From: Candidatus Pacearchaeota archaeon
GTDB lineage: Archaea > Nanobdellota > Nanobdellia > Pacearchaeales > GW2011-AR1
DNA length: 64,000 nucleotides
Direction: 5' to 3'
Assembly (NCBI GenBank): GCA_018304165.1
Contig: JAGVWS010000033.1
Span: 60 to 64,059 of the forward strand
Every line of letters begins with the position of its first letter. Within the stretch, counting starts at the first letter, position 1. A program made the position numbers and the translations under genes. Positions 1,730 to 43,752 of the stretch are shown here, in pieces. The notes under the pieces were generated by a model. That model was not told where the DNA came from. It saw only the letters and a list, made by a program, of their open reading frames with translations, and ran no database searches.

Positions 1730-1794
1730 ACCTACGGGCAATCCATCATTATCGTCAATACAACTCGCGCTACTTCAACTTATAGCAACAGACT

Positions 1795-1940
1795 TAAATA
1801 TTTGACCATTTTGTCTGTTGCTGCATCAAGATTTAAAAAATCTTGAGTGTGCTCAAGATGCAAGCTCCAGCATCTTGACATATTCGAGAGAACAAAAAAC
1901 ATGGTAAAACATTTTGGTCTCTCGTTATAGTTTAGCTTAA
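1795..1940. repeat. Structured hairpin-rich element; an inverted, rearranged copy lies at 25515-25641
   Basis: Four perfect or near-perfect stem-loops (gcaacagac/gtctgttgc, tcaagattt/aaatcttga, tcaagatgc/gcatcttga, cgagaga/tctctcg). About 40-nt and 45-nt segments are about 90-95% identical to the reverse complement of 25517-25606. Confidence 0.6.
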
Positions 1941-7031: not shown

Positions 7032-10000
7032 TCAGAACCATTTCTTTAACTCAACCTGCTTATCCTTTTCTTTCCCAAATATGCTCTCAATATAACTCTT
7101 GGCCAAAAAAAGGCTCTGCCTGATATAGGGAGAAACATTGTACTTTGTCGCCAATTCAAGAGCCGGCTCAAGGTATTTTACAATGCTTCCATGAGAAACA
7201 GTAAATATGATCCTCCCCCCGCATTTCAGGCACTTTCCAACCAGGGGCGGCCTCCTGTAAATCTCGTTGCATCCAACGCACCTAAATGTCTGCTGTGAAA
7301 ACTTTCTTAAATTTCCCCTTATGTCTCTTATAAAGTGCCTTTCAATTATCAACCTTGCAACGTCTGATTCATCAACAGCCCTTATTTTCTTGTCTAATTC
7401 CATTTGCTTGTTTACTTTATCACGCATCGTCGGAAGGAATTTATAGGAAGAATTCAAAAGGCCCTTGTTGATATCGTCTGTTTCATGAGTATATCCTATA
7501 TTTGAAAATGCATCTTCTCCTTTTTTTAGGACATCCCTGATAGTCTTCACCTGCACTTCCGAAGAGTGTGCGCCCTTCTCTGAAAGTTCATATAACTGCA
7601 GGGGATATTCCATACCTACTTCAAAATCAAGAATCTGCTCATCAACTTCTCCTGCTCTCAGCCTGGAATTAAGGACAAGAGGCGCATCCTGCGTCCCTCC
7701 GCGATGCGCCGGAAGAAATTCTCTTGAGAAATTCAAAAGGACGTCAAGAAGCAGCATGACCGCGGCTTCATCGCCGTCGCATTGGCGTGTAAGAATTCCA
7801 TTAGCTAACACTACATGATTCTCTACATTTAAACAATAAGTTATTTGTTCCTTTTCGGCAGAAATTTCAATTATTGGATCATAAATAAAATTAGTATCTT
7901 GTTTAAGCCCCATATCCTTGCCGCCTTTTTTGTTTATATCATTGATTGCTATATCATTTATTTTAGAAAAGCTTTCCAAGAAATTAACTCTACAATTATT
8001 CCTATTAAAGAGGGGTCTTAGTCTTGGTAAAATTAAAAGATCTCCGATTTTCAGACCAGATGCAAATGCTGTTTTAATTGTATTCTCTTTAACTAAAAAT
8101 TTATGATTTTCTGTGGTAGTAATCTCTTTTCCTGTTGCAGTTTTTATTTTAATTGTTCTACTGGGAGAATGTTTAGTAAAGTTGTTAATACTAACTATTG
8201 ATAGATTATTTTCATTATCAAATCCAACAGTTTTATAATTTTCTACTTTTATCTCTTTAGTCCCATAATTATCAACAATATTTATTGGATTTAATTTTTC
8301 AACTAATTCTCCGATTTTTATATTATTCCATTGTTGACCATTATAAATTGGAAGCTTGGTATTATAATCAAAACAGTCCCTCCTCATAGCCGCATGTATA
8401 AACGGAGACGCAAGCAATCCCTGAGTCTTGCTGAATCCAATTATTCTTCCCAAAACCCCTGCGCAGTTGTGTGGAGACATGCAGGCGACCAGCTGCCCGA
8501 CAAGCTGGTCCTTCCTTTCAATATTATAAAAGGGCTTTGCTCCATACATTTTAACAAGAAGTTCGTCAATAAATCCGGCTATGTTCAGGAATACCTCTTC
8601 GGACTTCTCATCTTTTGACTCCGGACACGATGGAAGGATTATATCATGCGGTTTTATCTCCAGAATTTGCTCATCACTTGTTAATTCCTTGCCGCAAATA
8701 TCCTTTTCATAACCCATCTCCTTAAGCCTCTTGCTGCTCACTCCAATCTCTTTCGGCTTGAAGTGGGTTACTGGAAGCTCGGTAGCATCATACCTCACAG
8801 TTCCATCTTTATTCACACTAAGATTGTGCTTTGCTCTCAATATTCCTTTAGCCAGATTTTCCATAGAGTGGTTCTTATTGCTCGTTCCCCTGACTCCTTT
8901 TATTAAATGGGGGATATCCTTGCCAGACATTCCTAATTTTTTTGCTGCAGCTGCAAGATAGTTCGTGCTGTCAATTCTCCTGTTCAAATAAGAAGTAATA
9001 TTATTATGCCCTTCCTTGCCGCACTTCTTGGAGTAAATAATCTCCCTGCAGTCGCGGCAGTAATGCCTCTGCTCCGTATTTTTATCACAGCCCTCGCATC
9101 TTGCATAAATAGTATCCCTCCTGCAATTATTGCAGTAGTAAATTGGAAAATCCCCTTTTATAGTTCCTTTCTCGCTGGCCTCATTCACGCTTCTGAACCT
9201 TCCCCCCTCCTCTCCGACAGGAAAGAGAACGCTTGGGCTTCCAACCAGCTTCCTGAGCTTTGCCTTCTCTGGCCTCCCCATCCTGGCCCCTATAAAAGTC
9301 CCTGCCCTGTCTTTTATTGGCACAAATGCCAGTTTGTTAATTATATCCAAAACCTGCATGGAAGGATTTACTTTCAGCTTGAGATGTGCTATATCCTCTT
9401 TAAGAGAATATTGGTTATTTTCAAGAATATCCTGTAAAATTCCGAGATTATAAAGCAATGCCTTGCTCTCCTCTTCCTTAAGCACAACATTCTCCGTGGC
9501 AACTTCATGTGGCACGCCAAGCAATTCCAGCGCCCTCTTGCCTTCGGCAAACTGCTGTTTCTGCGGAAGGGAATAAGGAAGTATGATCTTCTTTTCTATA
9601 TAACTGTTTTCAAGCCAATAAAGCAAAGAGCAAAATAAACTGTAATCAATCTGCGTCCAATAATAAATATACTTTGGATGAAGCGGGATATTATACTCTT
9701 CACTCATCTTTGCCGCTTCATCAAAAGACACTTTGGAGGAGTCTATGTTCAGGGCAGGAACAGCTTTCTTTGCTTCAAGAGCCCACCATTCTTCGACATA
9801 CCCCTGCTTTAGAAGAGGCTGATTTCTATTCAATACATCTCCAAAAGAAAAGAGAATGTCTCCAAGATAAATAATCTCTTCAACATCCTTATAGCAGTTC
9901 TTTGCCTCTTCAATATTATTCACTCTCCTTACACTACCATTATACAATTTAACAATGGGCCCCTCAATGCTGTCGCAAACAGTAACAGCACATCCTTTAA

Positions 10001-11096
10001 TTGGCTTTTCTACTTTGAGTTGGGTTCCTATGGATATAAATCCTGCCGCAATCGCCATGGTAGCAGGATGTATTGAAGCTGCCGAAAACCCTCCAAACCG
10101 GCTCCTCCCGTACCTGAACCTAAAAGAACCTGATGCAGAAGGATGCCCGAATATCGGCCTCCCTGCAACCAGATCTTTAATATATGTGGGCGACAATTCT
10201 TTCTTTCCCTCATCTCTCTTCCTGTGAAGAGAAGTATACTCTTCAAGAAATTCCCACTCAGAAATTTTAAATCCACTCTTCTGAAGCTTTCTCAAAATCC
10301 TCAGGCCTTTCTGGGCCTTTTGCGCCAGCCCCTCTCCCAGAATCAGGCAGAAGCCACCCCTTATAAAATTAGTCTCCACTCTCTTAAGATCCTTGTAATT
10401 TGAAACTTCCCTGTCTTCTGTAGGCTCCCCGGAAACCTGGATTGGAAGATGCCTTGCCAAAAACTCCGCTTCTTCTTCAGTAGGCAGGTATTGTAAATTA
10501 GTAATCCTTTCATGATAATCATAAATCTCTGCTATTGTTCTCTTGATTTCTCTTTCTGTCGGCTTGTACTTTGCATATCCAAATGCCTCCCTGAGGTAAT
10601 CAATTAATATCAGCACTACGCAGGATGCTGTTGTTCCGGCGCTTCTTATTGGTCCTGAAAAGTAGGGCACAAAGTACTCTCCGCCGTCCTCATTCTTGTT
10701 AGTCTTTAATGCAGTATACCCCTCTATGGGGCTGCTTACCACTCCAAGCGTGCTATACGCGAAGCCTATTCTTATTCCTGCATCTATTGCTTCTAACTGG
10801 CTGCTAAAAGAACAAAATTTCTGCCTTGCGATTTCCTCAGCTATCTTAAAAGAAATTTCTGGCGCTAATTGCCCATACTCCTTCTCAAGCTCCATTATTC
10901 TGTTTACTATCTCTTGCTTGTCTATCTGGGGATAAATTGTTGAAATTAATCCAACAGCCTTAGCTGCAAGAGTAGCCGCCAGCTTAACTTCCACTTCCCC
11001 CACAGGATCATATCCTTTGGCTCTTGCTTCTCTTGCTATCTCATACAAAAGATTAACTCTGTCTTGTAACTCCGCAAAGTATTCTTCATTGCTCAT
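7032..11096 (-). CDS. polC: DNA polymerase II (PolD) large subunit DP2, containing a mini-intein
   Basis: 1354 aa with DP2 hallmark regions and Zn-finger clusters (CNNCRRD...CEGC; CVGCNEIYRRPPLVGKCLKCGG). Catalytic CDGDE motif immediately after the intein. Confidence 0.9.
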   Translation of the reverse strand: MSNEEYFAELQDRVNLLYEIAREARAKGYDPVGEVEVKLAATLAAKAVGLISTIYPQIDKQEIVNRIMELEKEYGQLAPEISFKIAEEIARQKFCSFSSQLEAIDAGIRIGFAYSTLGVVSSPIEGYTALKTNKNEDGGEYFVPYFSGPIRSAGTTASCVVLILIDYLREAFGYAKYKPTEREIKRTIAEIYDYHERITNLQYLPTEEEAEFLARHLPIQVSGEPTEDREVSNYKDLKRVETNFIRGGFCLILGEGLAQKAQKGLRILRKLQKSGFKISEWEFLEEYTSLHRKRDEGKKELSPTYIKDLVAGRPIFGHPSASGSFRFRYGRSRFGGFSAASIHPATMAIAAGFISIGTQLKVEKPIKGCAVTVCDSIEGPIVKLYNGSVRRVNNIEEAKNCYKDVEEIIYLGDILFSFGDVLNRNQPLLKQGYVEEWWALEAKKAVPALNIDSSKVSFDEAAKMSEEYNIPLHPKYIYYWTQIDYSLFCSLLYWLENSYIEKKIILPYSLPQKQQFAEGKRALELLGVPHEVATENVVLKEEESKALLYNLGILQDILENNQYSLKEDIAHLKLKVNPSMQVLDIINKLAFVPIKDRAGTFIGARMGRPEKAKLRKLVGSPSVLFPVGEEGGRFRSVNEASEKGTIKGDFPIYYCNNCRRDTIYARCEGCDKNTEQRHYCRDCREIIYSKKCGKEGHNNITSYLNRRIDSTNYLAAAAKKLGMSGKDIPHLIKGVRGTSNKNHSMENLAKGILRAKHNLSVNKDGTVRYDATELPVTHFKPKEIGVSSKRLKEMGYEKDICGKELTSDEQILEIKPHDIILPSCPESKDEKSEEVFLNIAGFIDELLVKMYGAKPFYNIERKDQLVGQLVACMSPHNCAGVLGRIIGFSKTQGLLASPFIHAAMRRDCFDYNTKLPIYNGQQWNNIKIGELVEKLNPINIVDNYGTKEIKVENYKTVGFDNENNLSIVSINNFTKHSPSRTIKIKTATGKEITTTENHKFLVKENTIKTAFASGLKIGDLLILPRLRPLFNRNNCRVNFLESFSKINDIAINDINKKGGKDMGLKQDTNFIYDPIIEISAEKEQITYCLNVENHVVLANGILTRQCDGDEAAVMLLLDVLLNFSREFLPAHRGGTQDAPLVLNSRLRAGEVDEQILDFEVGMEYPLQLYELSEKGAHSSEVQVKTIRDVLKKGEDAFSNIGYTHETDDINKGLLNSSYKFLPTMRDKVNKQMELDKKIRAVDESDVARLIIERHFIRDIRGNLRKFSQQTFRCVGCNEIYRRPPLVGKCLKCGGRIIFTVSHGSIVKYLEPALELATKYNVSPYIRQSLFLAKSYIESIFGKEKDKQVELKKWF
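7782..8375 (-). other. Mini-intein (198 aa, no homing endonuclease domain) inserted between ...HAAMRRD and CDGDEAA of DP2
   Basis: Starts with Cys (CFDYNTKL), TxxH block (TENHKFL), block F/G (YCLNVENHVVLANGILTRQ), ends in Gln followed by Cys+1. Coordinates verified codon by codon (C908=8373-8375, Q1105=7782-7784). Confidence 0.75.
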
Positions 11097-11545
11097 GTTA
11101 ATTATCAGTTAATATGGTTTAATGCCACATTTAGTTTATAACCCCATTTTGTTTATTTTTCATGTTAATTATTGGTTGGTAAGACTTTTATTTTTCATGT
11201 TAATTATTGGTTGGTAAGACTTTTATTTTATAACCATTCTTTATTTATTATCTGGGTTAATTATCAGTTAATATTCGTTAACAGCACATTTAATTTATAA
11301 CCTCATTTTATTTATTGCTCATGTTAATTATTGGTTGATAATTCTCCTCAGCAATTTATAATAATTGTTATGGTGGGTTATTGCAGATATTTATGCTATC
11401 TTTTCAGGATATATCCCATGACTTTAGTATTTCCCTATAATGTCTTGTGCTATATTATTTCCTCAATGCAGACAATAGCTTCAAAGTATATTTATTTTCT
11501 TAATGCAAACGATATTCTCAAAGCATGTTTATTAAAACAAAATTA
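11097..11545. repeat. Intergenic block of duplicated modules, including 3 extra copies of the DP2 start context (catgttaatta)
   Basis: Module gttaattatcagttaata / acatttaRtttataacc / tcatgttaattattggttgg is duplicated (11098-11230 and 11257-11345), with an internal 37-bp tandem duplicate at 11158/11195. Confidence 0.6.
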
Positions 11546-13222
11546 TCAGGCCTGGCTGAAATCAAGCACCCTCATCTTTCTTGTTTTCATATTAAACACA
11601 GGCACTTTGCAGGGGTCCGGATGATTTCCCATTTTCTCTTCAAAGGGCGTTATTGACTGCCAGCATGAAGAGGCTATCATCAAAATATTATTATAAACAT
11701 CAATATCCAATTTATGCAAATCCCCCGTAGCAACTATGTCTGGAACTGTATCAATAAACATAGGATCCCTGTCATGATGAGGGATATATGGGTTGAATGA
11801 ATGCGTTGGGGAAAGGTGCCTTCTTTTAAGAAGGTACTTTATAACTTTCGTCGGCGAATCATGAGCCCTTCCCAGCCTCAATTCATCAATTTCATTGATT
11901 ATATTATGAAAGCTCGCCCCATGATACATTAAAACTCTGAATCCTCTCTTCTCTTTGCTCCTGCCGATTCCTATTTCTACCAGAGAAGGATTGCTCACCA
12001 GTATTAAATTACTTAAGTCATATAATGCCGCCCCATAATCCCTCCCCACAGGGGGCTGCGGCTCTGCTACTCTTACCGCATCGTGCTGTCCCGGGCAGAG
12101 AATGATAGTTATATCCTTTCTTATCATCTTTAAGTATTTTGCAAGCTCTTTGTACTGCTCTTCAATATCCGGCAGCTCCAGAAGCTTTTCCTGGGCAGGA
12201 TAAACTCCCACCCCGTCAATTGTATCCCCAACTATAAACAGATATTTGACCTTCAGGGCCTCTTTTTTCTCCTCTTCCTCCCCCAGCCCTCCATTAATCC
12301 AATTTATAAATCTCAAAAGATTGTCTTTCAGAAACATCTTGCTTCCTACATGAATATCTGATATGAATGCCGCCGATTCATCTTCATCAATCTTTAATTT
12401 GTCTTCTATGAGTGAATCTGGATAAAATATATCATTAACGAAAACAAAATCCTTGTCTCCCATTCCCCTAATTCCGATAACATCATCAAGGAGGATCTCT
12501 TTAGCCAAGTTGTATAACTCCTCCTTGTTCCTGTTGACCAGCACGCTTATTTTTCCGGTGTTGTCCTCCATTTCTAAAATCATGTTCTTGTTCTTCGTTA
12601 TTCTCTTGTCATAAACCAGCCCGATAATAGAAAGTTCCTGTCTCTTAAGCCCTATTTTATTTATGGAAGTAAGGTTATTTAGTCCCTGCCTCTGCTGGAG
12701 TATGCCTTTTATTCCGTTGAATCTCGTACGAAAGTATTTTACAAAATCATCAACTTCTACCTTCTTCGCCAGCCCGCCATACACTGCCAAAACTCTTACT
12801 CTATTCAAGCTCTGCGTGTCAGATAATAACTTATCTCCCGGCGCTTCCAAGCCGGATGGTTGTTTAATTTCCCCTACACCCGCCGCCTCATCTATCTGAT
12901 TGATAATCATTTCTTTCGCCGGGCTTTCTTCGAGAATACCAATTTCCTTTCGTTCTTTAGACAATTCAATATTTATTCCCAAACTTATCCATATCTTTTC
13001 AACTGTTGTTTTTCCAACAACCATCCCAAAAGCATTCTGCAGCTGCTGGGAATTCTTCAAAAGGCTCGATTTGGTTATAACTTTCTGATTCATCCCTTCG
13101 CTAAAAGATTCTATTATCTTTTTAACGGCTTCTAAATTCCCTATTTTTTCAAGAACCTGGCATACTTCAGAATCCACCAAAACTCCTTTCTCAAGACAAA
13201 ATTTTAATATTCTTTGATCCAT
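11546..13222 (-). CDS. polB: DNA polymerase II (PolD) small subunit DP1 (calcineurin-like phosphoesterase)
   Basis: MPP-fold motifs (FLFIVGDTIDG, CPGQHD, MYHGASFH, GDLH) with N-terminal OB-like region. Immediately upstream of DP2. Confidence 0.85.
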   Translation of the reverse strand: MDQRILKFCLEKGVLVDSEVCQVLEKIGNLEAVKKIIESFSEGMNQKVITKSSLLKNSQQLQNAFGMVVGKTTVEKIWISLGINIELSKERKEIGILEESPAKEMIINQIDEAAGVGEIKQPSGLEAPGDKLLSDTQSLNRVRVLAVYGGLAKKVEVDDFVKYFRTRFNGIKGILQQRQGLNNLTSINKIGLKRQELSIIGLVYDKRITKNKNMILEMEDNTGKISVLVNRNKEELYNLAKEILLDDVIGIRGMGDKDFVFVNDIFYPDSLIEDKLKIDEDESAAFISDIHVGSKMFLKDNLLRFINWINGGLGEEEEKKEALKVKYLFIVGDTIDGVGVYPAQEKLLELPDIEEQYKELAKYLKMIRKDITIILCPGQHDAVRVAEPQPPVGRDYGAALYDLSNLILVSNPSLVEIGIGRSKEKRGFRVLMYHGASFHNIINEIDELRLGRAHDSPTKVIKYLLKRRHLSPTHSFNPYIPHHDRDPMFIDTVPDIVATGDLHKLDIDVYNNILMIASSCWQSITPFEEKMGNHPDPCKVPVFNMKTRKMRVLDFSQA

Positions 13223-13261: not shown

Positions 13262-13400
13262 TTTGTCAAAACTATAGCTGGGAACTTTAATAGCTGAACT
13301 GTTAATCATTGACTACATACTCTGGATACCTCAATAGCTGAACTGTTAATCATTGACTACATACTCTGGATACTTTAATAGCTGAACCGTTAATCATTGA
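13262..13400. repeat. 45-bp tandem repeat x about 2.7 (aatagctgaactgttaatcattgactacatactctggatac) between cdc6 and DP1
   Basis: Direct repeats seen in sequence at 13280, 13325 and 13371. Confidence 0.7.
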
Positions 13401-13509
13401 CTATTAAGTAAAGGACATGCTATTTTGGTTAATTATTTATGTCTTTCACTATATCTCAATAATTTGAATGTACCTTGCCCGTCTGAACTTTTGAATATTA
13501 AATAAAAAA

Positions 13510-14982
13510 TCAAAAGTTCAGGCTGTCTGTTATTATTTCTCTCGCTCTTGGTATTATTTGCTCTGGAATGAGAAGCTTAATCTCCCTGGTTCTTCCATAC
13601 CTTCCCTTGCTTATTACTCTTGCATTTATCAATCCAAGCATGTCAAATTCGGCTATCAGATCTCCCACCCTTCTCTGAGTAAGTATTTCGTTCCTGCTCT
13701 TCCTGCACAGTTCCTGATATAAATTGTATATGTCTCCTGTAAAAATTTTCTGGTTTTTTTGGTTCTGGGCCCGTCTTTTATTATTCATCAACTCCAGTGC
13801 AGCAAGAAGAACTATCTGAAACTGCTTAGGAGCAGAGGAGATTATATCTAATATTTTATCCTTGTCTATTTTCTCATTGGCTATATCAATATGCTTTACA
13901 TCTATTCCACTCTCTCCGGCTCTCTCTGCAATTTCTCCTGCCACTCTTAGCAAGTCTAGAGCTCTTCTTGCATCTCCATGCTCTCTCGCAGCGTACGCTG
14001 CACATTTAGCTATAACTCCCTCTCCCAAAACCCCCTGTTTAAAAGAAACATCTGCTCTTTTCTTTAGAATATCCTGCAACTGCAGGGCATTGTACGGCGG
14101 AAAAATAATTTCTTCTTCAGACAAACTGCTCCTCACTCTTGGATCAATCAAGTCCAGAAATTTTAGATCATTGCTTATCCCTACTATGCTTAATGTTGTT
14201 TTATCTAGCTCAGAATTCATTCTCGTCAGATTATATAAGAAATCACTGGATATTTTCTTGACTGCCTGGTCTATTTCATCCAATATCAGGATGAATGTTT
14301 GTTTTTCTGATTCAATAAGGTCTATAAATTTATTATAAACCTGGTCTGTTGGAAGCCCGGTAGCAGGCACTTCTCCCCCCATCTTTTTAATAAGTTCTGC
14401 AAGAATTCTATATTCCGTATCTGCAACTTTTTTCAGTTTGCAGTTTAAGTATTCTATTTTAAGGGGAATTTCTAATTTTTTAGCCTTGTTTAAAAGTTGC
14501 TCCTTCATATACTTAATGCATATAGTCTTACCGCTTCCCGTCTGCCCGTAAACAAATAAGTTGCTTGTCCTCTCCCCCCTCAAAGCAGGTGCAAGAATGC
14601 TTGCAACCTGCTCAAGCTGCTCATCTCTGTGAATTATTTCATCAGGATGATACTTTGTCTGCAAGTGGCTCTTATCTTGAAATATACTTTCCTTAGCAAA
14701 AGAATCAAAAATCCGGTCTATTTTGCTCTTCATTCCCTGATTATTAATATTATCAGAATTATTTTTTATCCCATGATTAATTAGGTTATTAGAACTATTT
14801 TCCATCTCCCAATTAGTTAGATTATTAACATTACTTTTTATTTCCTGATTAAGTATATTATTAACATTACTTTTTATCTCTGCATTATTAATTTCTCTAT
14901 TATTAATATTATTAACACCCCTCTTTACTTCCTGATTATTAATTACGCTATTATCAATATTATAAATATTATCAACACTCAT
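13510..14982 (-). CDS. cdc6: Orc1/Cdc6 replication initiator (AAA+ plus winged helix), with a repetitive Asn/Ile-rich N-terminal extension
   Basis: Walker A GQTGSGKT, Walker B ILDEID, sensor motifs, C-terminal wH. Canonical Cdc6 N-terminus begins near M84 (IFQDKSHLQTKYHPDEIIHRDEQL). Residues 1-83 are about 12-aa periodic repeats encoded by 36-bp DNA repeats. Confidence 0.9.
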   Translation of the reverse strand: MSVDNIYNIDNSVINNQEVKRGVNNINNREINNAEIKSNVNNILNQEIKSNVNNLTNWEMENSSNNLINHGIKNNSDNINNQGMKSKIDRIFDSFAKESIFQDKSHLQTKYHPDEIIHRDEQLEQVASILAPALRGERTSNLFVYGQTGSGKTICIKYMKEQLLNKAKKLEIPLKIEYLNCKLKKVADTEYRILAELIKKMGGEVPATGLPTDQVYNKFIDLIESEKQTFILILDEIDQAVKKISSDFLYNLTRMNSELDKTTLSIVGISNDLKFLDLIDPRVRSSLSEEEIIFPPYNALQLQDILKKRADVSFKQGVLGEGVIAKCAAYAAREHGDARRALDLLRVAGEIAERAGESGIDVKHIDIANEKIDKDKILDIISSAPKQFQIVLLAALELMNNKRRAQNQKNQKIFTGDIYNLYQELCRKSRNEILTQRRVGDLIAEFDMLGLINARVISKGRYGRTREIKLLIPEQIIPRAREIITDSLNF

Positions 14983-16154: not shown

Positions 16155-16359
16155 GTATCTCTGATACAGCTATAAATTAGCAATAAGTTCAGAAGCCTGC
16201 AGTTAATGTGAATATTATAAGATAAGCATTAATAGGCAATTTATAATACTTACCATCAGGAATAATTATACTACGTTATCGTCTCAAGATTGATTAATGT
16301 GTTCTATTTATTGATAACCCTAATTCTATTGAATATAATACTATTCATCAGAGATACTT
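16155..16359. mobile_element. MITE-like element (about 205 bp), inverted orientation relative to the copies at 53.4 kb and 60.6 kb
   Basis: Ends GTATCTCTGATACAGC... and ...CATCAGAGATACTT match the family TIR (GAGTATCTCCGAT). Length matches the other copies. Confidence 0.6.
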
Positions 16360-19909: not shown

Positions 19910-20044
19910 TCCTCTTGCGAAAGTTGTTTTTTGTTTTTGATTAAAACTTTTGACGCAGAAAAAGATGTGTAGGAAAAGATACGTAGAAAGGGCTTGAGCT
20001 TCATATGATGCAATGATAGCTTTTACAACAGCAAAACAACTATA

Positions 20045-20142
20045 TTAATTGAGATACATTAATTGAGATACATTAATTGAGATACATTAATTGAGATACA
20101 TTAATTGAGATACATTAATTGAGATACATTAATTGAGATACA
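20045..20142. repeat. 14-bp tandem repeat x7 (ttaattgagataca)
   Basis: Perfect tandem copies seen directly, immediately upstream of the small membrane protein gene at 20174. Confidence 0.8.
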
Positions 20143-20173
20143 AGTAGAGGAAGTAATTGAGAGGAAATAAATA

Positions 20174-21127: not shown

Positions 21128-22000
21128 TTGCTGTCACTACTCATGCCTTTAGAGATTATTCTGCCAAGTTTCTATGAAAGCTCAAGGAATTCTAAAGATA
21201 TTATAATCTCAATTCTTACCAGGAACCACCCATTAAGTATAAAGAAAGTTTACAACAAAATGAGGTCCGGCCACAAATATGGAGGTACGTTTCAGTCAGT
21301 TTTCAAGAGCATTAAAGAGCTTCAGTTACAGAATATCCTAATGCGGGCAGGAAAAGAGTATTCCCTCAATCCAAACTGGATTGAAAAAATAAGAAGCTTT
21401 GCTAATGAACTGCATAGAGGTTACTTTGAGCCGATAAACAAAGAGGAAGCAGATATCAGCGAGATGTCTCTTAAGAAGGAAGTCCACAAATTTGAATTCA
21501 ACAACCTCTCTAATCTATATTTTTTTGTTAAGAATATAGAGAAGAGTTACATAGACAATTCGCAGGGAAAAAAGAGATGTCTGTGGATAATGTCTCATTA
21601 TTGGCCTACTTTTCTATTTCCTCATGAAGAGCATGACAGGGGCATATTCCTCAGCTCAAAGAAAGTCAATTATTATATCACTCACAAGTCCGAAAATGCA
21701 TTGGACAAATGGGCGCTGAAGATTTTTTCCGGAAAGGGAGTTAATATTCTCTGTAAAGCAGGCATTTCAGAGCGTTCTGATGTAGGTGTATATGGAGATT
21801 GGGTGGTTGAAGTTTACTATTCGGAATCTTTTAAGAATATTCATAAATATTTCAGGGAAGTTTCAAATATTTCAGAGATAGATTTAAGCAGTTTTATCGG
21901 AGATCTAAAAAAAGATTACAAGATTGTAGTAGTCATGCACAAAGATAAATTTGTAGCAGATCAAATCTGGGATTCCATATATAAAAAAATATTAGCTTAA
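21128..22000 (+). CDS. Hypothetical protein with possible N-terminal wHTH
   Basis: N-terminal region (IISILTRNHPLSIKKVYNKMRSG) resembles a wH fold. The 3' end of the gene is tandemly duplicated at 21961-22075. Confidence 0.3.
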   Translation: MLSLLMPLEIILPSFYESSRNSKDIIISILTRNHPLSIKKVYNKMRSGHKYGGTFQSVFKSIKELQLQNILMRAGKEYSLNPNWIEKIRSFANELHRGYFEPINKEEADISEMSLKKEVHKFEFNNLSNLYFFVKNIEKSYIDNSQGKKRCLWIMSHYWPTFLFPHEEHDRGIFLSSKKVNYYITHKSENALDKWALKIFSGKGVNILCKAGISERSDVGVYGDWVVEVYYSESFKNIHKYFREVSNISEIDLSSFIGDLKKDYKIVVVMHKDKFVADQIWDSIYKKILA

Positions 22001-22232
22001 AACATAAATGGTATTCCATATATAAAAAAATATTAGCTTAAAACATAAATGGTATTCCATATATAAAAAAAAATTTATCATGGTAATTCAACTTTTTAGT
22101 TTACTGAATTAAACATTATAGTTTAATGAGTTAAATAAATCTCTTTAATTTCCATTAAACCTCATCTTTATTACTTATTTTGTCCACTTAGACTCAGCAA
22201 AAAACGGATGTTTATTAAAAGGGTGATGATTT

Positions 22233-24901: not shown

Positions 24902-25235
24902 GGACGTTATAATAATTATTCGCGTCGATAAGTTACTTTGAAACCAGAAGTGATTAACTGATAACATATAAAACAATAATTAGCGTCGATAAGTTACTTT
25001 GAAACCAAGGAATCAAGGATAATTAACTAATATTAATTGATAAACTGCAAAACATAAAACGCTGCTCTAATCTGAATGTATGATTCAACACTATTGATAA
25101 ATCTCTAATAAGCTAATATCTGAATGTATGATTCAACACTATTGATAAATCTCTAATAAACTAATTTATTATTATAAGAACTATTGCGATAGATATATTA
25201 AAAATTAGTGCGGAATTTACCTAATCACCTATAGT
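24902..25235. repeat. Mosaic repeat region homologous to 55480-55735
   Basis: Both carry ataagttacYttRaaacca...aattaactgataa x2, a 47-bp direct duplicate (25071/25120), and the module TTAGTGCGGAATTTASCTAATCAC. Confidence 0.55.
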
Positions 25236-25420
25236 GAAAGACATAATTCTTTCCCTAAATAGCCAATGACAAATCAGGGAAATATTAAAGTCCTTGGCTA
25301 TAATGTTAATATTAATCAGATATTAAGTATAAGCAAGCAAAGTATAGCATCTATCCTCGTCAATAACATAGCAGCCTTATCGTATCAAAAACTCGTCTTA
25401 GTCATCAAAAATGTTAATCA

Positions 25421-25641
25421 TCAAGGATGTTAATCCTTGACTGCGCTCAAGAATTGTAAATTCTTGACGTTTTGAATGTGCTCAAGAACTAATGTTCTTG
25501 ACATTTTGAGCATACTTATAACGAGAGACCAAAATATTTCACCATGTTTTTTGTTCTCTCGAATACAGCAACAGACAAAATGGTCAAATATCTAAGTCTG
25601 TTGCCGTAAGATGCAAGCTCCAGCATCTTGATTATGCTGGC
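25421..25641. repeat. Hairpin array (GCTCAAGA-Nn-TCTTGAC units x3) followed by an inverted copy of the 1795-1940 structured element
   Basis: Units tcaaggatgttaatccttgac, tcaagaattgtaaattcttgac, tcaagaactaatgttcttgac with compensatory inner-stem changes. 25517-25606 is the reverse complement of segments of 1795-1920. Confidence 0.6.
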
Positions 25642-27788: not shown

Positions 27789-28054
27789 AGTATCTCCGAT
27801 GGATTGCTATTACATATTAGAAATAAGAGATATAGAATCTATTAATTAATTTTGAAACACCAGCCATCTAGTTCTTAACGATGATAAATACTGGCAAGCC
27901 ATCTAGTTCTTAACGATGATAAATACTGGCAAGCCATCTAGTTCTTAACGATGATAAATACTGGCAAGCCATCATCCAAGTTATCCTAATCTGATTTACA
28001 ATATTAATTGAGCCCTGAATCTATTACTAAGCTATATTTGTATTGGAGATACTT
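27789..28054. mobile_element. MITE-like element carrying an internal 35-bp x3 tandem array, abutting the 3' end of tRNA-Ala
   Basis: Ends AAGTATCTCCGATGG (27789) and GTATTGGAGATACTT (28040) match the family TIR. 35-bp unit ccatctagttcttaacgatgataaatactggcaag x3 at 27864-27968. Confidence 0.55.
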
Positions 28055-28060
28055 AAGATA

Positions 28061-28134
28061 TGGACCTATCGGGAATCGGACCCGAATCTCGTCGTTGCGA
28101 ACGGCGCGTAATTAAGCCATTATACTATAGGCCC
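28061..28134 (-). tRNA. tRNA-Ala (anticodon CGC); CCA not encoded
   Basis: Manual fold: acceptor GGGCCTA/TAGGTCC with G3:U70 (Ala identity pair), A73, anticodon loop TTCGCAA, T-stem TCGGG/CCCGA. One C.A mismatch in the anticodon stem and a non-canonical T-loop (TCCGATT). Confidence 0.6.
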
Positions 28135-28184: not shown

Positions 28185-29363
28185 CTAACATTCTGTTGAG
28201 GTTAGGGCTTCTTGCTTCATAGAACTTGTTTGCTCCAACGGAGTATTGACAGATTTCTCCACACAGGACAATTCCTGCCCTGCTAATTTATTTAGTATGT
28301 TTATCGCCGAGTTGTAATCTCTGTCTATGACAAAGCCACATTCAGCACACTCGTAAGTTCTCTTATATAGGGACATATCCTGAATATGTCCACATTGAGA
28401 ACAGATTTTACTTGTGTTTCTTGGGTCTATCTTAACTATCTGACAACCAGCGTTCTCAGCTTTGAAGTCCAGTAGTTGAGCAAATTTACCCCAAGAAGCA
28501 TCCATCATATTTTTAGCGTTGAAATATTTTTGTTGTGACATTTGCTTTATGTCCAAATTTTCCATAACAATTATCTTACATTCCTTTATTAATTTTGTTG
28601 TAATCTTATGCAAGAAATCTGTTCTTTGATTTGTGATTTTGAGATGAAGTTTTGATAATCTTATTCTTGCCTTTTTTCTGTTAGAACTTCCTTTCTTTTT
28701 TCTTGACAAATCTTTCTGTAGATGCTTTAACTTTGATAAATTTTGCTCCAAGATTTTGGGGTTTTCTATTTTGTTTCCTTCGCTGTCAACGAGATAATTA
28801 TTTATCCCTAAATCAATTCCCACAACTTTATTTCCGCAAATAATTTGCTTTTTCTCGTCGGTAATTATAATAGCGTACCATCTGTCGATCTCTTTCTTTA
28901 TCTGAATTTGCTTTATGTTTCCATTCACTTCCCTATGAACTTTAATTTTTATATCCCCTATTTTTGAAAGATGAAGTTTATTATCTTCCAGAGAAAAACC
29001 ACTTTGATTATAATTTATTGTCTTGAACCATCCCTTTCCTTTGAACCTCAATCTCCCAACTTTTTTATGATTTCCTTTCAAAACTTTTAATGCTGATAAA
29101 TTAGAAAATAATCTATAACATTCGTATTGAAGTGTTTTAGAATAAACTTCTCTGAATCTCGGCTCACAGATTTTTAAGTCCGGGAGAATTGCCTGAATCA
29201 TATTTCTGTCTATAACAACTTGGTCTCTTAATTCTCCGAGCATCATATTATAAGCCCGTCTACATGTATCCAAAGCAAATTCTAACTTATCAGTTTGCTC
29301 TTTGTTTGGATATAGTCTGAATTTATTTGCTAACATTTTTTGGTTCTCCCTGACTTTCAACAT
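28185..29363 (-). CDS. tnpB: TnpB (IS605 OrfB; RuvC-like RNA-guided nuclease family)
   Basis: C-terminal RuvC-III plus zinc finger region (CSQCGHIQDMSLYKRTYECAECGFVIDRDYNSAINI). Overlaps tnpA by 41 nt. Confidence 0.8.
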   Translation of the reverse strand: MLKVRENQKMLANKFRLYPNKEQTDKLEFALDTCRRAYNMMLGELRDQVVIDRNMIQAILPDLKICEPRFREVYSKTLQYECYRLFSNLSALKVLKGNHKKVGRLRFKGKGWFKTINYNQSGFSLEDNKLHLSKIGDIKIKVHREVNGNIKQIQIKKEIDRWYAIIITDEKKQIICGNKVVGIDLGINNYLVDSEGNKIENPKILEQNLSKLKHLQKDLSRKKKGSSNRKKARIRLSKLHLKITNQRTDFLHKITTKLIKECKIIVMENLDIKQMSQQKYFNAKNMMDASWGKFAQLLDFKAENAGCQIVKIDPRNTSKICSQCGHIQDMSLYKRTYECAECGFVIDRDYNSAINILNKLAGQELSCVEKSVNTPLEQTSSMKQEALTSTEC

Positions 29364-29751
29364 ATTTTTTTAGAACATCAAGAGTTACCTGTCCTGATGT
29401 TATAAGACAATAACTTCCGCTCCAAAATACATCTTTCCAAAGTTTGTCTTTTATCTTGTCTCTGAATTTGTTTCTTAATGCTTTTGAAGTTGCTGATTTC
29501 CAGTTGTTTATGAACTTTAATAAATCTGTTTGTGGCTTGGCTATAAACAAAATATGAACGTGGTCTAAATCGCTTTCTATCGCTGTTATTTTTATTCCAT
29601 AAATTTCTGCAATCTTGTGGGTTCTTGATTTTAGTTCATCAATTATCTCTGGAAAAGATAATACTTTTCTTCTGTATTTTATGCACTGAACTAAGTGATA
29701 ATTCAGTGTATATACTGAATGTGCGTTCTTATCAAATTTGTATATTCCCAT
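29323..29751 (-). CDS. tnpA: IS200-like Y1 (HuH) transposase TnpA
   Basis: HuH motif HVHILF and catalytic Tyr region (WSGSYCLITSG); 142 aa. Confidence 0.8.
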   Translation of the reverse strand: MGIYKFDKNAHSVYTLNYHLVQCIKYRRKVLSFPEIIDELKSRTHKIAEIYGIKITAIESDLDHVHILFIAKPQTDLLKFINNWKSATSKALRNKFRDKIKDKLWKDVFWSGSYCLITSGQVTLDVLKKYVESQGEPKNVSK

Positions 29752-29900: not shown

Positions 29901-30905
29901 ATGATTATATCTATACGCATGATATTGAAAAGGTTGGGAGCTTCCCTGGCCGCGCTTTGCGCGGGCTCCATTGGAGTGGGATGCGTTAGTGATGTAAATG
30001 CAATTACAAGAGAGATTGAGAGCTATGAGCGGACTAAGATAATTCTTGAGGAATTAATTGAGCACTTTGAGAGGCAGAGAGATCAGAGAGATAATACATA
30101 CTCAAATAAAGATGATTCATATCACTATGCATCTTCTGAACAGTTATCAGAGCAGCTTTCAGAACATGAGAATTCTGCACCCGTTATAGAGCCGGACAGG
30201 AGCAGCCTTTTTTACAGAATAATTCCCGGCGTGAACGCTCTGCAAAGAAGCAATACAAACAATATGAACAGATTAAACAGCAGTGCAAGCAGTATCAACA
30301 ATGCAACAATGAGTATCAACAATGCAACAATGAGTATCAACAATGCAACAAGCAGTTTGCAAAACAGCATTTTATCTGGGCATAACAATATCAGGGCCCA
30401 AAATGCCGTTGATGCAACTCTTAACAGCCTTGATGATCCAAAAAGAGATTTTGACGAGGGAGATGCTAAGCGAGTAGCCCTGACTCTTCTTACCGGCCAG
30501 GACATAGGGGCTGTCGTTGAGTGGGGTTATTCTCAGGTAGATGAAGTCAGGAGAGTAAAGAAAGAATGGCTGGAAAAGCCTCTCGAAGAATATACTGGAG
30601 TTAAATGGGGCTTCTCATTTAGCGGAGGCATTTCCGGTGAGGTTGATGCAGGGATCAGGGCAAGAAAGAAACTTAATGTCTTTGGACTTTCCGGTGAATT
30701 ATCCCTTGAATTAAAAGAACAGTCCTGGAGCGATTTTGCTTACGGAAATTCTCAAGCTTCCGCTCTTACCTCTTCTTATGCATATAGATACAGAGAACCA
30801 GTTCTTAACTCTCCACTATGGCTCATGGCTCTTAGTGATGAAGATGAATCTCCCACTATTACTCTTGCTTACACCATAAAATTCCCTTCCGGAAAAAGGC
30901 GCTGA
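29901..30905 (+). CDS. Secreted/lipoprotein-like protein of unknown function
   Basis: Signal peptide with lipobox-like GVGC; SEQLSEQLSE and NNATMSINNATMSINNAT repeats. Confidence 0.35.
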   Translation: MIISIRMILKRLGASLAALCAGSIGVGCVSDVNAITREIESYERTKIILEELIEHFERQRDQRDNTYSNKDDSYHYASSEQLSEQLSEHENSAPVIEPDRSSLFYRIIPGVNALQRSNTNNMNRLNSSASSINNATMSINNATMSINNATSSLQNSILSGHNNIRAQNAVDATLNSLDDPKRDFDEGDAKRVALTLLTGQDIGAVVEWGYSQVDEVRRVKKEWLEKPLEEYTGVKWGFSFSGGISGEVDAGIRARKKLNVFGLSGELSLELKEQSWSDFAYGNSQASALTSSYAYRYREPVLNSPLWLMALSDEDESPTITLAYTIKFPSGKRR

Positions 30906-31172
30906 TTTCTGATACAATCCCAATTTAGCAGGAAGATTTAAAGAATCAACCAATAATGTAAATCCTCTTAATAAGCACGAACAGGCATGAGCAAGCCTTT
31001 GTTAGCCTTTGTTAGCAATTACCATCGATTGAACTCGTTGATAAAGGTCATACCTAATTAATAATGGAATTATTTCTGATAGTTATATCATTCTTATGCT
31101 ACTAAAATAATTACCCATTGGAGATGCTGGCTCTTAACCAACACTTATAAAGAAGTATGCACAATCCATTGG

Positions 31173-32009
31173 ATGAAAAAAGAGGATTTTCTGAAAAAAA
31201 TTGAAATAGAATTAAGAATTTCAAAGAACAGCCCATACACTATAAGAAATTATCTGAAAGCGAATGAAGAGCTTCTTGACTTTGCGAAGAAAAACCCGGA
31301 AAATATTGAGCAGAATGATGTCAAGAGCTTTCTTGCAGAAAACTCAGGTAAAGCTTCAAGCTCTATAATCCTGATTCTTGCAGCAATAAGATTTGCATAT
31401 ACCTCTCTACTTCAAAAAGATCCTACGGTGAGCATCAAGAGGCCGAAGAAGGAAAGAACTCTCCCCGACGTTTTAACGAAAGAAGAAGTTCTCAAGCTTA
31501 TTGAAAACACAAAGACATGGAAGAGCCGCCTGATAGTCAGCTTGTTATACGCCTCTGGAATGAGGGTGTCTGAATTAATAAACCTTCGGCTGAAGAACCT
31601 TCATTTCGAAGAGAAAATCGGGCATATAAAGAAAGCCAAGGGAAACAAAGACAGAATTTTCAATATACCTAATTATTTGATTGAAGATTTGAAGAGGCAG
31701 GCTGAGGAGCAGAAGCAAAAGGGCAGGGAATTTTTATTCACAGGCCGTGAGGGAAAGCAGATTTCCGCCCAAAACCTCCAGAAAATTGTAAGGCTTGCAG
31801 CAAAGCGGGCAGGAATTAAAAAAAGCGCCCATTGTCACACCCTGCGTCATAGCTACGCGACACATCTCTTGGAGTCCGGAACAGATATTAGACTGATACA
31901 AACCCTGCTTGGACACAGTTCAATCTCCACGACGGAAATTTACACCCACATTTCTACCGCGCAGTTAAAGAGAGTTGTTTCTCCTCTGGATGAGCTGATG
32001 AAGAAATAA
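31173..32009 (+). CDS. Tyrosine recombinase, XerA/XerCD-like
   Basis: Catalytic residues in context (R..., HTLRHSYATHLLESGTDIRLIQTLLGHSSISTTEIYTH). 278 aa, as for archaeal XerA. Confidence 0.8.
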   Translation: MKKEDFLKKIEIELRISKNSPYTIRNYLKANEELLDFAKKNPENIEQNDVKSFLAENSGKASSSIILILAAIRFAYTSLLQKDPTVSIKRPKKERTLPDVLTKEEVLKLIENTKTWKSRLIVSLLYASGMRVSELINLRLKNLHFEEKIGHIKKAKGNKDRIFNIPNYLIEDLKRQAEEQKQKGREFLFTGREGKQISAQNLQKIVRLAAKRAGIKKSAHCHTLRHSYATHLLESGTDIRLIQTLLGHSSISTTEIYTHISTAQLKRVVSPLDELMKK

Positions 32010-41170: not shown

Positions 41171-41992
41171 ATGGAAATTTATAAAAGGCACAGGGGAAAT
41201 TTTGCAGTTGCTCTAGGAAAATTAGCCAGAGCTAAAACAAAGCAAGCCTTTGCAACACCTGCGCAGGGTATGCAGGAAAGAATGCGGCAGGGAATTGAAG
41301 CGGATATTTCTACAGAGGGAGCATGGTATAATGCAAGCTTTAATGAAGTTGGCGGAAGAATTCTCGGAACAAGGGCAGAATTTAATCCATTAATTGATTG
41401 CGCTGAACAGGCAGTAGAATCCACGAGAATAGGAGAGTTTTATTTAGAAGGAGTTTTAATTAATGGAAATCCTGCATCAGAAGTTCTTGCTGAAGCTGCG
41501 GAAAGAGATGCACAAAAACCAATTCATAAAAGACGGGTTGCAGATTTTGGGCAGATGAAGACCCATGATGTTCCGGCTGACTGCTTTGGAGATGATGATA
41601 CAATTGTATTTCTTGCAGAAAGCAAGGCAGGAGCGAATAAGTATGGGTCATGGTTGAGAAAAAATGCAGGAGTTAAGGAATCAAGAGTCCGTATGCAGGA
41701 TATAGATGGGAAGGATAAATCAAGAGGATTTTGGCTTGGCAGGCTTGCTGATGACGGCAGGTCTGATTTCTATTGCGACGACAGGTTCCTCGGCAATGGC
41801 GGCGGCTCTCTGTTTGGGGTATATGAAAGTGCCGAAGGCACACAAAAAATTTCTGAACAGCATGAACATGCTGAACAAAGAAGAATCATTTCTCCGAATT
41901 TGTCAGACATGCTTAAATATTCAAGGCCCTTTGTTCATTCAAGAGACTGGAAAGATTTTGAAAGAGGATTAAGGGCAAAATTTGAAAAGTGA
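41171..41992 (+). CDS. GC-rich (about 45-50% GC) protein of unknown function, probably horizontally acquired
   Basis: Composition clearly above the about 33% background. A decaying partial copy of its 3' part lies at 42330-42430. Confidence 0.45.
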   Translation: MEIYKRHRGNFAVALGKLARAKTKQAFATPAQGMQERMRQGIEADISTEGAWYNASFNEVGGRILGTRAEFNPLIDCAEQAVESTRIGEFYLEGVLINGNPASEVLAEAAERDAQKPIHKRRVADFGQMKTHDVPADCFGDDDTIVFLAESKAGANKYGSWLRKNAGVKESRVRMQDIDGKDKSRGFWLGRLADDGRSDFYCDDRFLGNGGGSLFGVYESAEGTQKISEQHEHAEQRRIISPNLSDMLKYSRPFVHSRDWKDFERGLRAKFEK

Positions 41993-42329
41993 TATTTTTT
42001 AAAGTATATCTCTGTCTAATTGAGTTCTGGCGCAGCCAGAACTACACGCCGGTTTACTAGGGCATATTTAACTTCATTTTACGCCATAAAATTCAGAAGC
42101 GACATTGAGTAGCGATGAAGAAACTAAGAGTGCGCAGAGCGAAACTGAGAAAACAAAAGTTTTCGAGGACTCAAGATGTCAAAATTAAAATAATTTTGAG
42201 CACATTCAAAAATTAACATTTTTGATGAGTGACCTTCTTGAAGTATGAAGCTTCAGTGTGCAGATTAAATTCTGCTCTGTACGGGCAAGATTCTCGGCAT
42301 GAAAGAAATTTCATGAGGTAAACTGGCTA

Positions 42330-42430
42330 CACTGTGTCTTGGCTCAACAGGCTTGCTGATGACAACAGGTCTGATTTCAATTGCAACAACAGGAACCTCG
42401 ACAATGACGACGGCTCTCTGTTTGGAATAG
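42330..42430 (+). pseudogene. Decaying partial duplicate of the 3' region of gene 41171-41992
   Basis: About 85% identity to 41727-41825; the differences are predominantly G-to-A (ggc to gac/aac). Confidence 0.6.
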
Positions 42431-42525
42431 TTTTGGCTGCCAGAACATTGTTGTGGATAAATAATCTGCGGAATATCTAATGCTGAAAACAGCTAATTGT
42501 CAAAACTTTTTAAGAATTTGACAGA

Positions 42526-43230
42526 TTACTTTTTCTTCCTTGATTTTGTTATTCTCTCCACTCTTCCATCCTTGACGTGATAGATTGTCCTTGCATGCTT
42601 CTTTGCCAGTTCAGCATCATGGGTTACCATTATTATTGTCTTTCCTTTTTTGTTTAATTCTTCCAGAAATTTCATTATTTTTTCTCCGGTCTTTGTATCA
42701 AGGTTTCCCGTAGGCTCGTCGGCCAGTATTACATCAGGATTATTAGCAAGGGCTCTTGCTATTGCAACTCTCTGCTGCTGCCCTCCGGAAAGCTGGCCGG
42801 GATAGTGGTTTGCTCTGTCAGATAATTCCACTAATTCTAGCAGCTCATCAGCCCTGGCCTCTCTTTCACTCTCATCAATGTCCTGGAAGAGCATCGGGAG
42901 CATTATGTTTTCCCTTGCTGTCAGATTCGGCACGAGATTGAACTGCTGGAAAATAAATCCTATTTTTCTCCCCCTTATCTGCGCGAGGTCTGATTCCGGA
43001 AGATGTTCTATATTGAGCCCATCAAGATAAATATCTCCCTTCGTCGCCAGGTCCAGGCTTCCTACTAAATTCATAGCACTTGATTTCCCGCTTCCGCTCG
43101 GACCCATTATCGCCACAAAATCACCCTTGTTAATTTCAAGATTAATGCCATCTATTGCTTTGACGATAGCCTCTCCCATCTCATAATACTTCGCGACGTT
43201 TTCCAGGCGGATTAATTCTCTGTTATTCAT
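42526..43230 (-). CDS. ABC transporter ATP-binding protein (MacB/LolD-like)
   Basis: Walker [10 protein letters not shown], signature [15 protein letters not shown], Walker [12 protein letters not shown]. Start set at MNNRELIRL (43228-43230) because the longer ORF to 43500 would overlap rpoN. Confidence 0.8.
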
Positions 43231-43281
43231 AAGATTATCATGAGAGGAAAGCTTTAAAAATATGCTTTTTATGAAGAATAT

Positions 43282-43479
43282 ATGATCATAGTCATCCGTT
43301 GTATGAGCTGCGGCAAACCCATTGCGCACTTGTACGAAAAGTTTAAACAGCGTACTGCCAATGGAGAATCTGCGCGGGACGTTCTTGATGATCTTGGACT
43401 CAAGAGATATTGCTGCCGCTCCGCTTTCATGGGTCAGGTTGATTTGATTGAGGAGATTTCTAAATTCAAAAAATCTTGA
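43282..43479 (+). CDS. rpoN: DNA-directed RNA polymerase subunit N (Rpb10 homolog)
   Basis: IRCMSCGKPI...LGLKRYCCR... zinc-bundle signature; 65 aa. Confidence 0.85.
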   Translation: MIIVIRCMSCGKPIAHLYEKFKQRTANGESARDVLDDLGLKRYCCRSAFMGQVDLIEEISKFKKS

Positions 43480-43584
43480 AGATTTGATTTTTTGAGCCAC
43501 GAAAATTGAAAATTTTTGATGTTTAAGAAGAGTTAAAAAATCCTTATCTGATAAGCTCCATAATCAACCTAATATGTGTAATCC

Positions 43585-43752
43585 GCTCAGATTATAATAA
43601 GTTGCATGATTTGTATTAGTGATAATTAATTCTGCAAAACGCTCAGATTATAATAAGTTGCATGATTTGTATTAGTGATAATTAATTCTGCAAAACGCTC
43701 AGATTATACTATGTTGTATGATTTGTATTAGTGATAATTAATTCTGCAAAAT
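43585..43752. repeat. 56-bp tandem repeat x3
   Basis: cgctcagattataataagttgcatgatttgtattagtgataattaattctgcaaaa repeated; third copy slightly diverged. Confidence 0.8.

Follow-up and report, generated by a model that had tools for sequence, protein, structure and literature searches.

We analysed a 64,000-nt stretch of DNA from Candidatus Pacearchaeota archaeon (assembly GCA_018304165.1, contig JAGVWS010000033.1, positions 60-64,059 of the forward strand), hereafter the window. Near its start the window encodes an ERCC4 nuclease (1010-1729, + strand) and, convergently, a LigT protein (1970-2506, - strand), and the 240-nt spacer between them holds a cluster of hairpins that we call copy A. An inverted counterpart, copy B, occupies a 740-nt convergent spacer after a 93/98-aa ORF (end 25632, - strand) downstream of the ThrRS gene. 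The replication genes DP2 (7032-11096), DP1 (11546-13222) and Cdc6 (13510-14982) lie between the two copies, as an earlier note on this DNA had stated, and each copy does sit in a convergent spacer directly 3' of a gene. DP2 carries an intein. The Hef-like helicase (42-872) and the ERCC4 nuclease are separate adjacent ORFs, as they are in relatives at L123 and L126 (labels of this form denote individual loci).

Two inverted copies of a hairpin element

A repeat scan of the window links the two spacers through two pairs of inverted arms, 1881-1940 with 25506-25565 (60 nt, 88% identity) and 1776-1826 with 25563-25613 (51 nt, 90% identity). Two hairpins are common to both copies. H1 (GCAACAGAC, 19-nt loop, GTCTGTTGC) is the same at 36 of 37 nt (1785-1821 against 25568-25604 on the - strand), and H4 (TATTCGAGAGAAC...GGTCTCTCGTTATA) at 47 of 49 nt (1881-1929 against 25517-25565 on the - strand); neither pattern was matched in 100 dinucleotide shuffles. 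The middle hairpin of copy A, TCAAGATGC-AAGCTCCA-GCATCTTGA (1853-1878), occurs a second time at 25606-25631 (24 of 26 nt the same), on the opposite side of H1. Its loop keeps the + strand sense in both copies, so that relative to the H1-to-H4 axis the hairpin has been not only relocated but flipped. The earlier description of two inverted copies with shared hairpins and a middle hairpin moved to the other end is borne out, with the flip added to it.

Four hairpins form when the region 1730-1969 around copy A is folded (+ strand, z = -5.75; - strand, z = -7.39), in keeping with the four strong hairpins described for 1795-1920, and copy B gives z = -6.3 and -6.8 on its two strands. Both copies fold equally well on either strand, with z between -5.8 and -7.4 relative to shuffles. 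The fold also suggested an extra closing helix between the outer flanks of copy A (1730-1779 and 1930-1969), which we rejected on an alignment score below the shuffle mean. The features are as follows, with scores from R1, a covariance model built from 18 units of the element (alignment A1).

1781-1825 (+): copy A H1; TATA, stem GCAACAGAC 1785-1793, 19-nt loop TTAAATATTTGACCATTTT 1794-1812, stem GTCTGTTGC 1813-1821; R1 47.5 bits over 1780-1837
1826-1846 (+): copy A, TCAAGATTT-AAA-AAATCTTGA, an inserted hairpin that forms one half (the first) of a TCAAGR double-hairpin module
1853-1878 (+): copy A, TCAAGATGC-AAGCTCCA-GCATCTTGA, also inserted, completing the TCAAGR double-hairpin module as its second half
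1881-1929 (+): copy A H4; TATT-CGAGAGAACAAAA 1885-1897, loop, TTTTGGTCTCTCG 1912-1924, TTATA; R1 45.8 bits over 1847-1929
25606-25631 (+): copy B TCAAGATGC hairpin, beginning directly after the stop codon of the 93/98-aa ORF
25564-25609 (-): copy B H1, core 25568-25604, 1 mismatch relative to copy A; R1 95.6 bits over 25517-25609, E 7e-20
25517-25565 (-): copy B H4, directly adjoining H1 (compact form)
25421-25501 (-): three more TCAAGR..YCTTGA hairpins 3' of the copy B H4 (25482-25501, 25447-25467, 25421-25440)
25230-25303 (-): third, partial element; H1 variant GCCAAGGAC..GTCATTGGC, then a hairpin AGGGAAAGA..GTCTTTCACT replacing H4; R1 36.9 bits, E 3e-6
13403-13453 (+): possible weak relative of a GGGAAAGA/GTCTTTCAC hairpin module, forming an inverted repeat with 25230-25259; R1 only 17 bits, E 0.13

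The window contains five TCAAGR..YCTTGA hairpins against 0.97 expected, and all five are at the copy A and copy B loci.

Other repeats are also present between the genes of the window. Tandem repeats, as a rule with a 31-56-nt unit present three times, lie at 2696-2795, 11152-11221, 13278-13409, 20027-20156, 21968-22090, 27862-27973, 43577-43751, 50119-50219 and 56531-56656, and near Cdc6 a 14-nt unit is repeated eight times. In several of these arrays the copy number is not constant among metagenome contigs from one strain. Three other long inverted repeats, of 78-82% identity, pair 30905-31128 with 60560-60772 (~220 nt), 16200-16358 with 53424-53582 (159 nt) and 48482-48570 with 55643-55731 (89 nt), and probably represent further intergenic repeat families. 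One arm of the ~220-nt repeat is just upstream of a gene for an Xer-like tyrosine recombinase (31173-32009).

A dispersed family in DPANN genomes

The earlier note treated the element as a pair, a view that the third partial copy, in the same spacer as copy B, already contradicts. A scan for the H1 stem pattern in one genome per species found 21 loci in eight species MAGs of Woesearchaeota/Nanoarchaeota, with 10 of the contigs from a single MAG, as well as chance matches in assorted bacteria. H4 stands next to H1 at nearly all 21 loci, giving a unit TATA-H1-TATAT-H4-TTATA. Scanning metagenomes for an H4 21-mer of the window yielded 18 stretches, corresponding to ~14 further loci, in JGI metagenomes that also hold the window's organism, among them a 54-kb contig with three copies. 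Model R1 detected additional copies within the same 8-12-kb slices (four each in L143 and L044, for example), up to a maximum of four in 11 kb. The source population has at least 16 loci, at a density of ~1 copy per 20-30 kb, and at least eight other species MAGs of Woesearchaeota/Nanoarchaeota carry many copies each, bringing the family to at least nine species. Judged by sequence, copies A and B are ordinary members of a dispersed, many-copy, modular intergenic repeat found in several DPANN genomes. Our search of the literature returned no description of an H1/H4 repeat.

The frame of the element consists of two hairpins. H1 reads TATA-GCAWMWGAC, a ~19-nt loop, and GTCWKWTGC-TATA; H4 reads TTCG, a stem of 9-14 bp around a ~20-nt loop, and CGTTATA. 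Read on opposite strands the two have the same design, and a loop core of 12-14 nt is common to both in inverted orientation: H1 and the reverse complement of H4 each run TATA, R-C, a stem ending in ..AGAC, a loop core such as AAATAATTGAGC, stem, TATA. They appear to behave like terminal inverted repeats, each of which is itself hairpin-shaped. When copies from the same genome are compared, similarity ends exactly at the TATA/GC... boundary on one side and directly after ...CGTTATA on the other.

A smaller second module is formed by a pair of TCAAGR..YCTTGA hairpins joined by GTGYGC, which can lie between the frame hairpins, beside them or nested in the loop of another hairpin. These hairpins come in 36 sequence variants, are usually paired at a distance of 26-30 nt, and in some cases lie away from H1 and H4. 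Depending on the copy there are 0, 2, 3 or 4 internal hairpins between H1 and H4. Copy B and many others have nothing there; copy A, L087 and L064 (both from other species), L127, L130, L142 and L143 have the TCAAGR pair with GTGYGC; and L062, L082, L083 and L115 have other internal hairpins (GTCAACGAC.., AGGGAAAGAC..), including, as an internal module, the GGGAAAGAC hairpin of the third window copy. In the nested form the hairpin pair sits within the loop of TCAAGATTT-AAAA-AATCTTGA (L129, L137/L138, L128), and the middle hairpin of copy A is found in identical form at L128, L129 and L138. Some copies are irregular: the H1 loop of L089 is flipped, L135 is chimeric with a foreign, non-complementary H1 loop, and the H4 stems of L066, L090 and L087 have decayed. 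Overall size ranges from 90 to 260 nt, with individual hairpins of 37-49 nt. As read from these sequences, the variation bears the marks of a repeat family that has been copied, rearranged and left to decay.

A 12-mer, GCAGTTATCCAT, which the window lacks, recurs at a distance of 50-400 nt from elements in one MAG and in the window's population, which makes two species (L044 5457-5468, L062 4317-4328, L064 1604-1615, L074 6536-6547, L128 464-475), and may be a second co-located repeat module.

Genomic context and gain of the copy A spacer

All 39 elements examined are intergenic. Gene 3' ends are faced by 45 of 70 element flanks, and a position between divergent genes is rare (two of 32 elements). 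Among H4 sides, 24 of 32 point toward a gene 3' end; for H1 sides the figure is 21 of 38, so orientation relative to the genes is biased rather than fixed. The neighbours are unrelated housekeeping genes and operons, met in either orientation.

In the two nearest relatives, whose ERCC4 proteins are 58% and 55% identical to that of the window, the gene order is the same (Hef helicase, ERCC4, convergent LigT, diphthamide synthase) and the gap between ERCC4 and LigT is 1-3 nt; R1 has no match in three loci from these relatives. Since ERCC4 and LigT abut there, the 240-nt spacer together with copy A is a lineage-specific gain, which counts against a conserved regulatory element of these two genes. 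The relatives are distant, and the gain is accordingly old, or its exact junction untraceable. In a search of 5.8 billion proteins the 58% identical protein is the best ERCC4 homologue, followed by Pacearchaeota/Nanoarchaeota proteins at 50-55%, and no empty site for copy A was found close enough in sequence to be compared base by base. Strain-level presence/absence polymorphism was not seen, copy A being identical in the eight contigs that span it.

The earlier note had also suggested that the two copies bracket the replication genes as a substrate for inversion of the intervening 23.5-kb segment. Recombination between inverted segments of this size (37-49 nt, 96-97% identity) is possible in principle. 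Gene order, the check proposed for inversion polymorphism, speaks against this. LigT was found on twelve metagenome contigs and ThrRS on twelve, and altogether ~20 contigs, drawn from at least eight samples, cover one of the two copies or almost the entire segment. Every one is collinear with the window at 99.5-100% identity, differing only in tandem repeat copy number, and there is no inverted junction among them (copy A is spanned by eight contigs and copy B by five). On the 49.7-kb scaffold_2193 a ribosomal protein cluster is followed without rearrangement by copy B, Cdc6, DP1 and DP2, as far as position 3510. The pair is moreover not special within so large a family: at ~1 copy per 20-30 kb, any 23-kb segment is expected to be flanked by copies by chance. 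A functional pair mediating inversion is therefore very improbable, and the flanking of the replication genes is a coincidence, uninformative about those genes. GC skew shows no clear origin in the window, and we set aside an argument from replication direction.

Conservation of the two-hairpin structure

The earlier note proposed structural covariation in the homologous elements of relatives as the observation on which its structured element should stand or fall, and such covariation is present, in the H4 stem and in a pairing between the two loops. In alignment A1 the H4 stem is paired in 90.6% of cells and has five pairs changed on both sides. The H1 stem is nearly invariant (99.6% of cells paired, one pair changed on both sides), in part an artefact, because the search used the exact H1 stem sequence; variants with compensatory changes do occur (GCATAAGAC/GTCTTATGA, GCAACTGAC/GTCAGTTG, GCCAAGGAC/GTCATTGGC). 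RNAalifold independently predicts both hairpins. The H1 loop (columns 17-28) is complementary to the H4 loop and 3' arm (columns 71-82) in 89% of cells, with five compensatory pairs, against 31-49% when the 3' partner is slid by 1-3 columns as a control. This complementarity may reflect a kissing interaction within a folded single strand, or H1 and the reverse complement of H4 may be versions of one design that change in concert. The flipped (L089) and chimeric (L135) copies violate the pairing. The covarying loops, and stems kept between species with no more than 58% identity in ERCC4, indicate a functional constraint beyond that on a purely selfish repeat, through recognition of RNA or by protein.

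One form this constraint could take is a structured RNA family, in which H1 and H4 make a kissing-loop pseudoknot with optional further hairpins, acting in cis in 3' UTRs (on stability or termination) or in trans as an sRNA. The compensatory changes in the H4 stem and between the loops, seen across species and between paralogues (L086 and L109), are what such a family would produce, and the strong folding (z ~ -6 to -7) and the tendency of the H4 side to face gene 3' ends agree with it. On the H1-to-H4 strand there are 21 G.T and 12 A.C wobbles, a slight excess in the same direction; it is weak and comes from copies that are not independent, and we rejected it as a guide to the acting strand. 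The GUGYG/CRUAU extension helix offers no clue to the strand either, because it covaries only at Watson-Crick positions. Several observations weigh against an RNA. Folding is equally strong on both strands, the wobble bias and the gene-orientation bias indicate opposite strands, and the H1 side faces 3' ends without a fixed orientation. No conserved promoter lies upstream of the elements, whose flanks diverge immediately. The number of modules varies, hairpins are nested in hairpins, the H1 loop can be flipped or non-complementary, and the complementary loops are equally explained by two inverted copies of one recognition site. Rfam gave no match: a scan of the whole window with Rfam 15 at gathering scores returned nothing for copies A and B, and scans of both loci at E <= 10 returned only sub-threshold microRNA and snoRNA noise. 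The nearest relatives lack the orthologous spacer altogether. We consider a structured RNA unlikely. An oligo-T terminator was also considered and rejected, since the T6 run in H4 of the window's species is not conserved in other species.

What survives of the structured element first described is that its stems are kept by compensatory changes across species. Its reading as a two-copy RNA or 3'-UTR element of the adjacent genes falls: relatives lack the spacer, neighbours elsewhere are unrelated and in either orientation, modules vary and decay, and the Rfam check proposed for it found no relevant match for either copy.

The Rfam scan did identify an RT-16 RNA (69 bits, 42025-42335) within a diversity-generating retroelement at 41171-43500. 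It lies between the two copies of an 87-nt repeat, one variable (41731-41817, inside the ORF 41171-41992) and one template (42339-42425), which differ only where the template has A and the variable copy another base; the ORF at 42526-43500 (- strand) is probably the reverse transcriptase.

The search for a mobilising enzyme

The window encodes an IS200/IS605-type element at 28185-29751 (- strand), 2.6 kb from copy B and at the same site in all fetched contigs. Its tnpA (29323-29751, Y1_Tnp, 142 aa) overlaps its tnpB (28185-29363, OrfB_IS605/Cas12f1-like, 383-392 aa). We rejected it as the source of the repeat, its ends being unrelated to H1, H4 and the TCAAGR hairpins: the tnpA/tnpB flanks in the window share no 9-mer with the element and have no comparable hairpins. 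Elements are likewise absent near related tnpA-tnpB insertion sequences at all ten loci on other contigs. A tblastn search of 43 loci found one tnpA, at L062 in another MAG, 296 nt from the element and on one side only, which fits chance. A tRNA-Ala(CGC) gene (28061-28134, - strand) lies 50 nt downstream of the window tnpB on the same strand.

Neither ~450 kb of loci nor viral contigs yielded an autonomous element with H1/H4 ends. A viral origin was rejected: the H1 stem pattern has matches in eight viral contigs, all by chance, and R1 has none in these contigs. Apart from three Xer-like recombinases, an all-against-all comparison of 325 neighbouring ORFs returned nothing but multicopy families (AAA_14/DUF4143 ATPases, PIN toxins, tRNA synthetase paralogues), and the idea of a recurrent neighbour gene was dropped except for the recombinases, which we keep as a lead. 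Their genes lie 1-5 kb from elements at three of 34 loci:

window 31173-32009: Xer-like tyrosine recombinase
L035 564-1379: Xer-like tyrosine recombinase
L130 9863-10672: Xer-like tyrosine recombinase

The three proteins are 41-48% identical to one another; that of the window (278 aa) is the nearest tyrosine recombinase, 5.5 kb away. Such proximity is commoner than expected for a single-copy gene, and shared synteny could also account for it. The recombinases bear on the possibility that the elements are DNA sites with a host function (chromosome architecture, replication/segregation or an Xer-type recombinase), at which a putative protein would bind the loop core common to H1 and H4, reading it either as an inverted repeat with a wide spacer or in the form of extruded hairpins. 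A 12-14-nt core that is inverted between H1 and H4 and altered in concert between species would suit such a protein, as would the persistence of the family across deeply diverged species. The spacing from core to core, however, runs from ~45 to more than 170 nt owing to inserted modules, decayed and chimeric copies occur, and the recombinases are near elements at three loci only. We regard binding sites of this kind as improbable, more so than an RNA.

Interpretation and significance

The element is probably a non-autonomous, modular palindromic repeat of REP/BIME or MITE type that has dispersed in Woesearchaeota/Nanoarchaeota genomes. On this reading an enzyme acting in trans would copy units into TA-rich intergenic sites, and copies would persist chiefly downstream of genes, where they do least harm. 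Decay would follow, along with exchange of modules and flipping of loops through recombination or template switching between palindrome arms. By analogy with REP/BIME, hairpin clusters in read-through transcripts probably serve as 3'-end stabilisers or as insulators between convergent genes.

A stronger interpretation, which we advance tentatively and rate as doubtful, is that selection maintains in H1-H4 a specific fold of two hairpins whose loops pair, formed either by RNA or by single-stranded DNA that an undescribed enzyme would recognise. The family would then be either a DPANN-wide, vertically maintained system like REPIN-RAYT with different machinery, or a new class of multicopy regulatory RNA in genome-reduced archaea.

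Repeat families of this sort are well studied in bacteria and hardly described in DPANN archaea, whose genomes are small and under such strong reduction that every non-coding base needs explaining. Here a modular hairpin repeat fills spacers that are otherwise absent and persists in at least nine species with covarying loop-loop complementarity. As a marker it is useful in binning and in strain typing; it probably also causes breaks in assemblies, and it offers a tractable case for the spread of elements without a visible matching transposase.

Comparison with known systems

The family has much in common with the REP, BIME and REPIN repeats. It consists of short extragenic palindromes in many copies, whose two frame hairpins may correspond to the inverted unit pairs of REPIN doublets and BIMEs; it clusters with other small modules, prefers gene ends and convergent spacers, and keeps its hairpins despite sequence drift. 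REP palindromes have a conserved GTAG or CGTC tetranucleotide at one end (PMC3733652), whereas the element ends in TATAGC... and ...CGTTATA, with a TATA(G/A)C tag and without GTAG or CGTC. It differs further from REP and BIME in its archaeal DPANN host, in long ~19-nt loops that carry a shared core, and in pairing hairpins with different stems. As to an alternating arrangement of units, the TATA tag, the ..AGAC stem end and the loop core of H1 recur in H4 when it is reverse-complemented, but the stems of the two differ. In contrast to REPIN-RAYT systems, none of the 43 loci has a repeat-flanked RAYT gene, and the window tnpA is paired with tnpB and has no flanking elements.

The resemblance to MITEs is also close: the element is non-coding, multicopy, intergenic and 90-260 nt long, its terminal modules appear mutually inverted, and the number of its internal modules varies. 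Modular, hairpin-rich MITEs include the pneumococcal BOX elements (boxA-boxB(n)-boxC) and the Correia elements of Neisseria. Presence or absence at orthologous sites, a MITE trait, is seen in the ERCC4-LigT spacer, 240 nt long here and 1-3 nt in relatives. A bulk MITE census includes one Woesearchaeal genome, with 105 MITEs per Mb, among the highest-density archaea (PMC11602168). As to terminal inverted repeats, the termini here, TATAGCAACAGAC and TATAACGAGAGAC (the latter the reverse complement of the 3' end), match at ~7 of 13 positions, and the strong core is internal, in the loops. TATA stands on both sides of the element, with a differing fifth base, but since TATA also flanks every hairpin module a target duplication is indistinguishable from part of the element itself. 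Unlike a MITE, the element has no autonomous insertion sequence with matching ends in the searched loci.

The IS200/IS605 elements and their gene-less derivatives, PATEs, are similar in being recognisable by their hairpins and not by plain terminal repeats, and the window does encode a Y1 transposase and TnpB. Their end hairpins are on the same strand, however, whereas the core of the present element is on opposite strands; the ends of the insertion sequence have no sequence in common with the element, and related insertion sequences have no element adjoining them. Integron attC sites, too, are imperfect palindromes 3' of genes in which structure is kept more than sequence. The present elements differ from them in having no RYYYAAC/GTTRRRY core sites, cassette arrays or adjacent IntI, and in having housekeeping genes as neighbours. 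The family thus lacks the defining features of REP, IS200/IS605 derivatives and attC sites, and it belongs to no Rfam family. By analogy with REP/BIME/REPIN and the modular MITEs, which it appears to resemble in behaviour, it would belong with the dispersed intergenic palindromic repeats, among which the covarying complementarity of the loops of its frame hairpins is an unusual feature.
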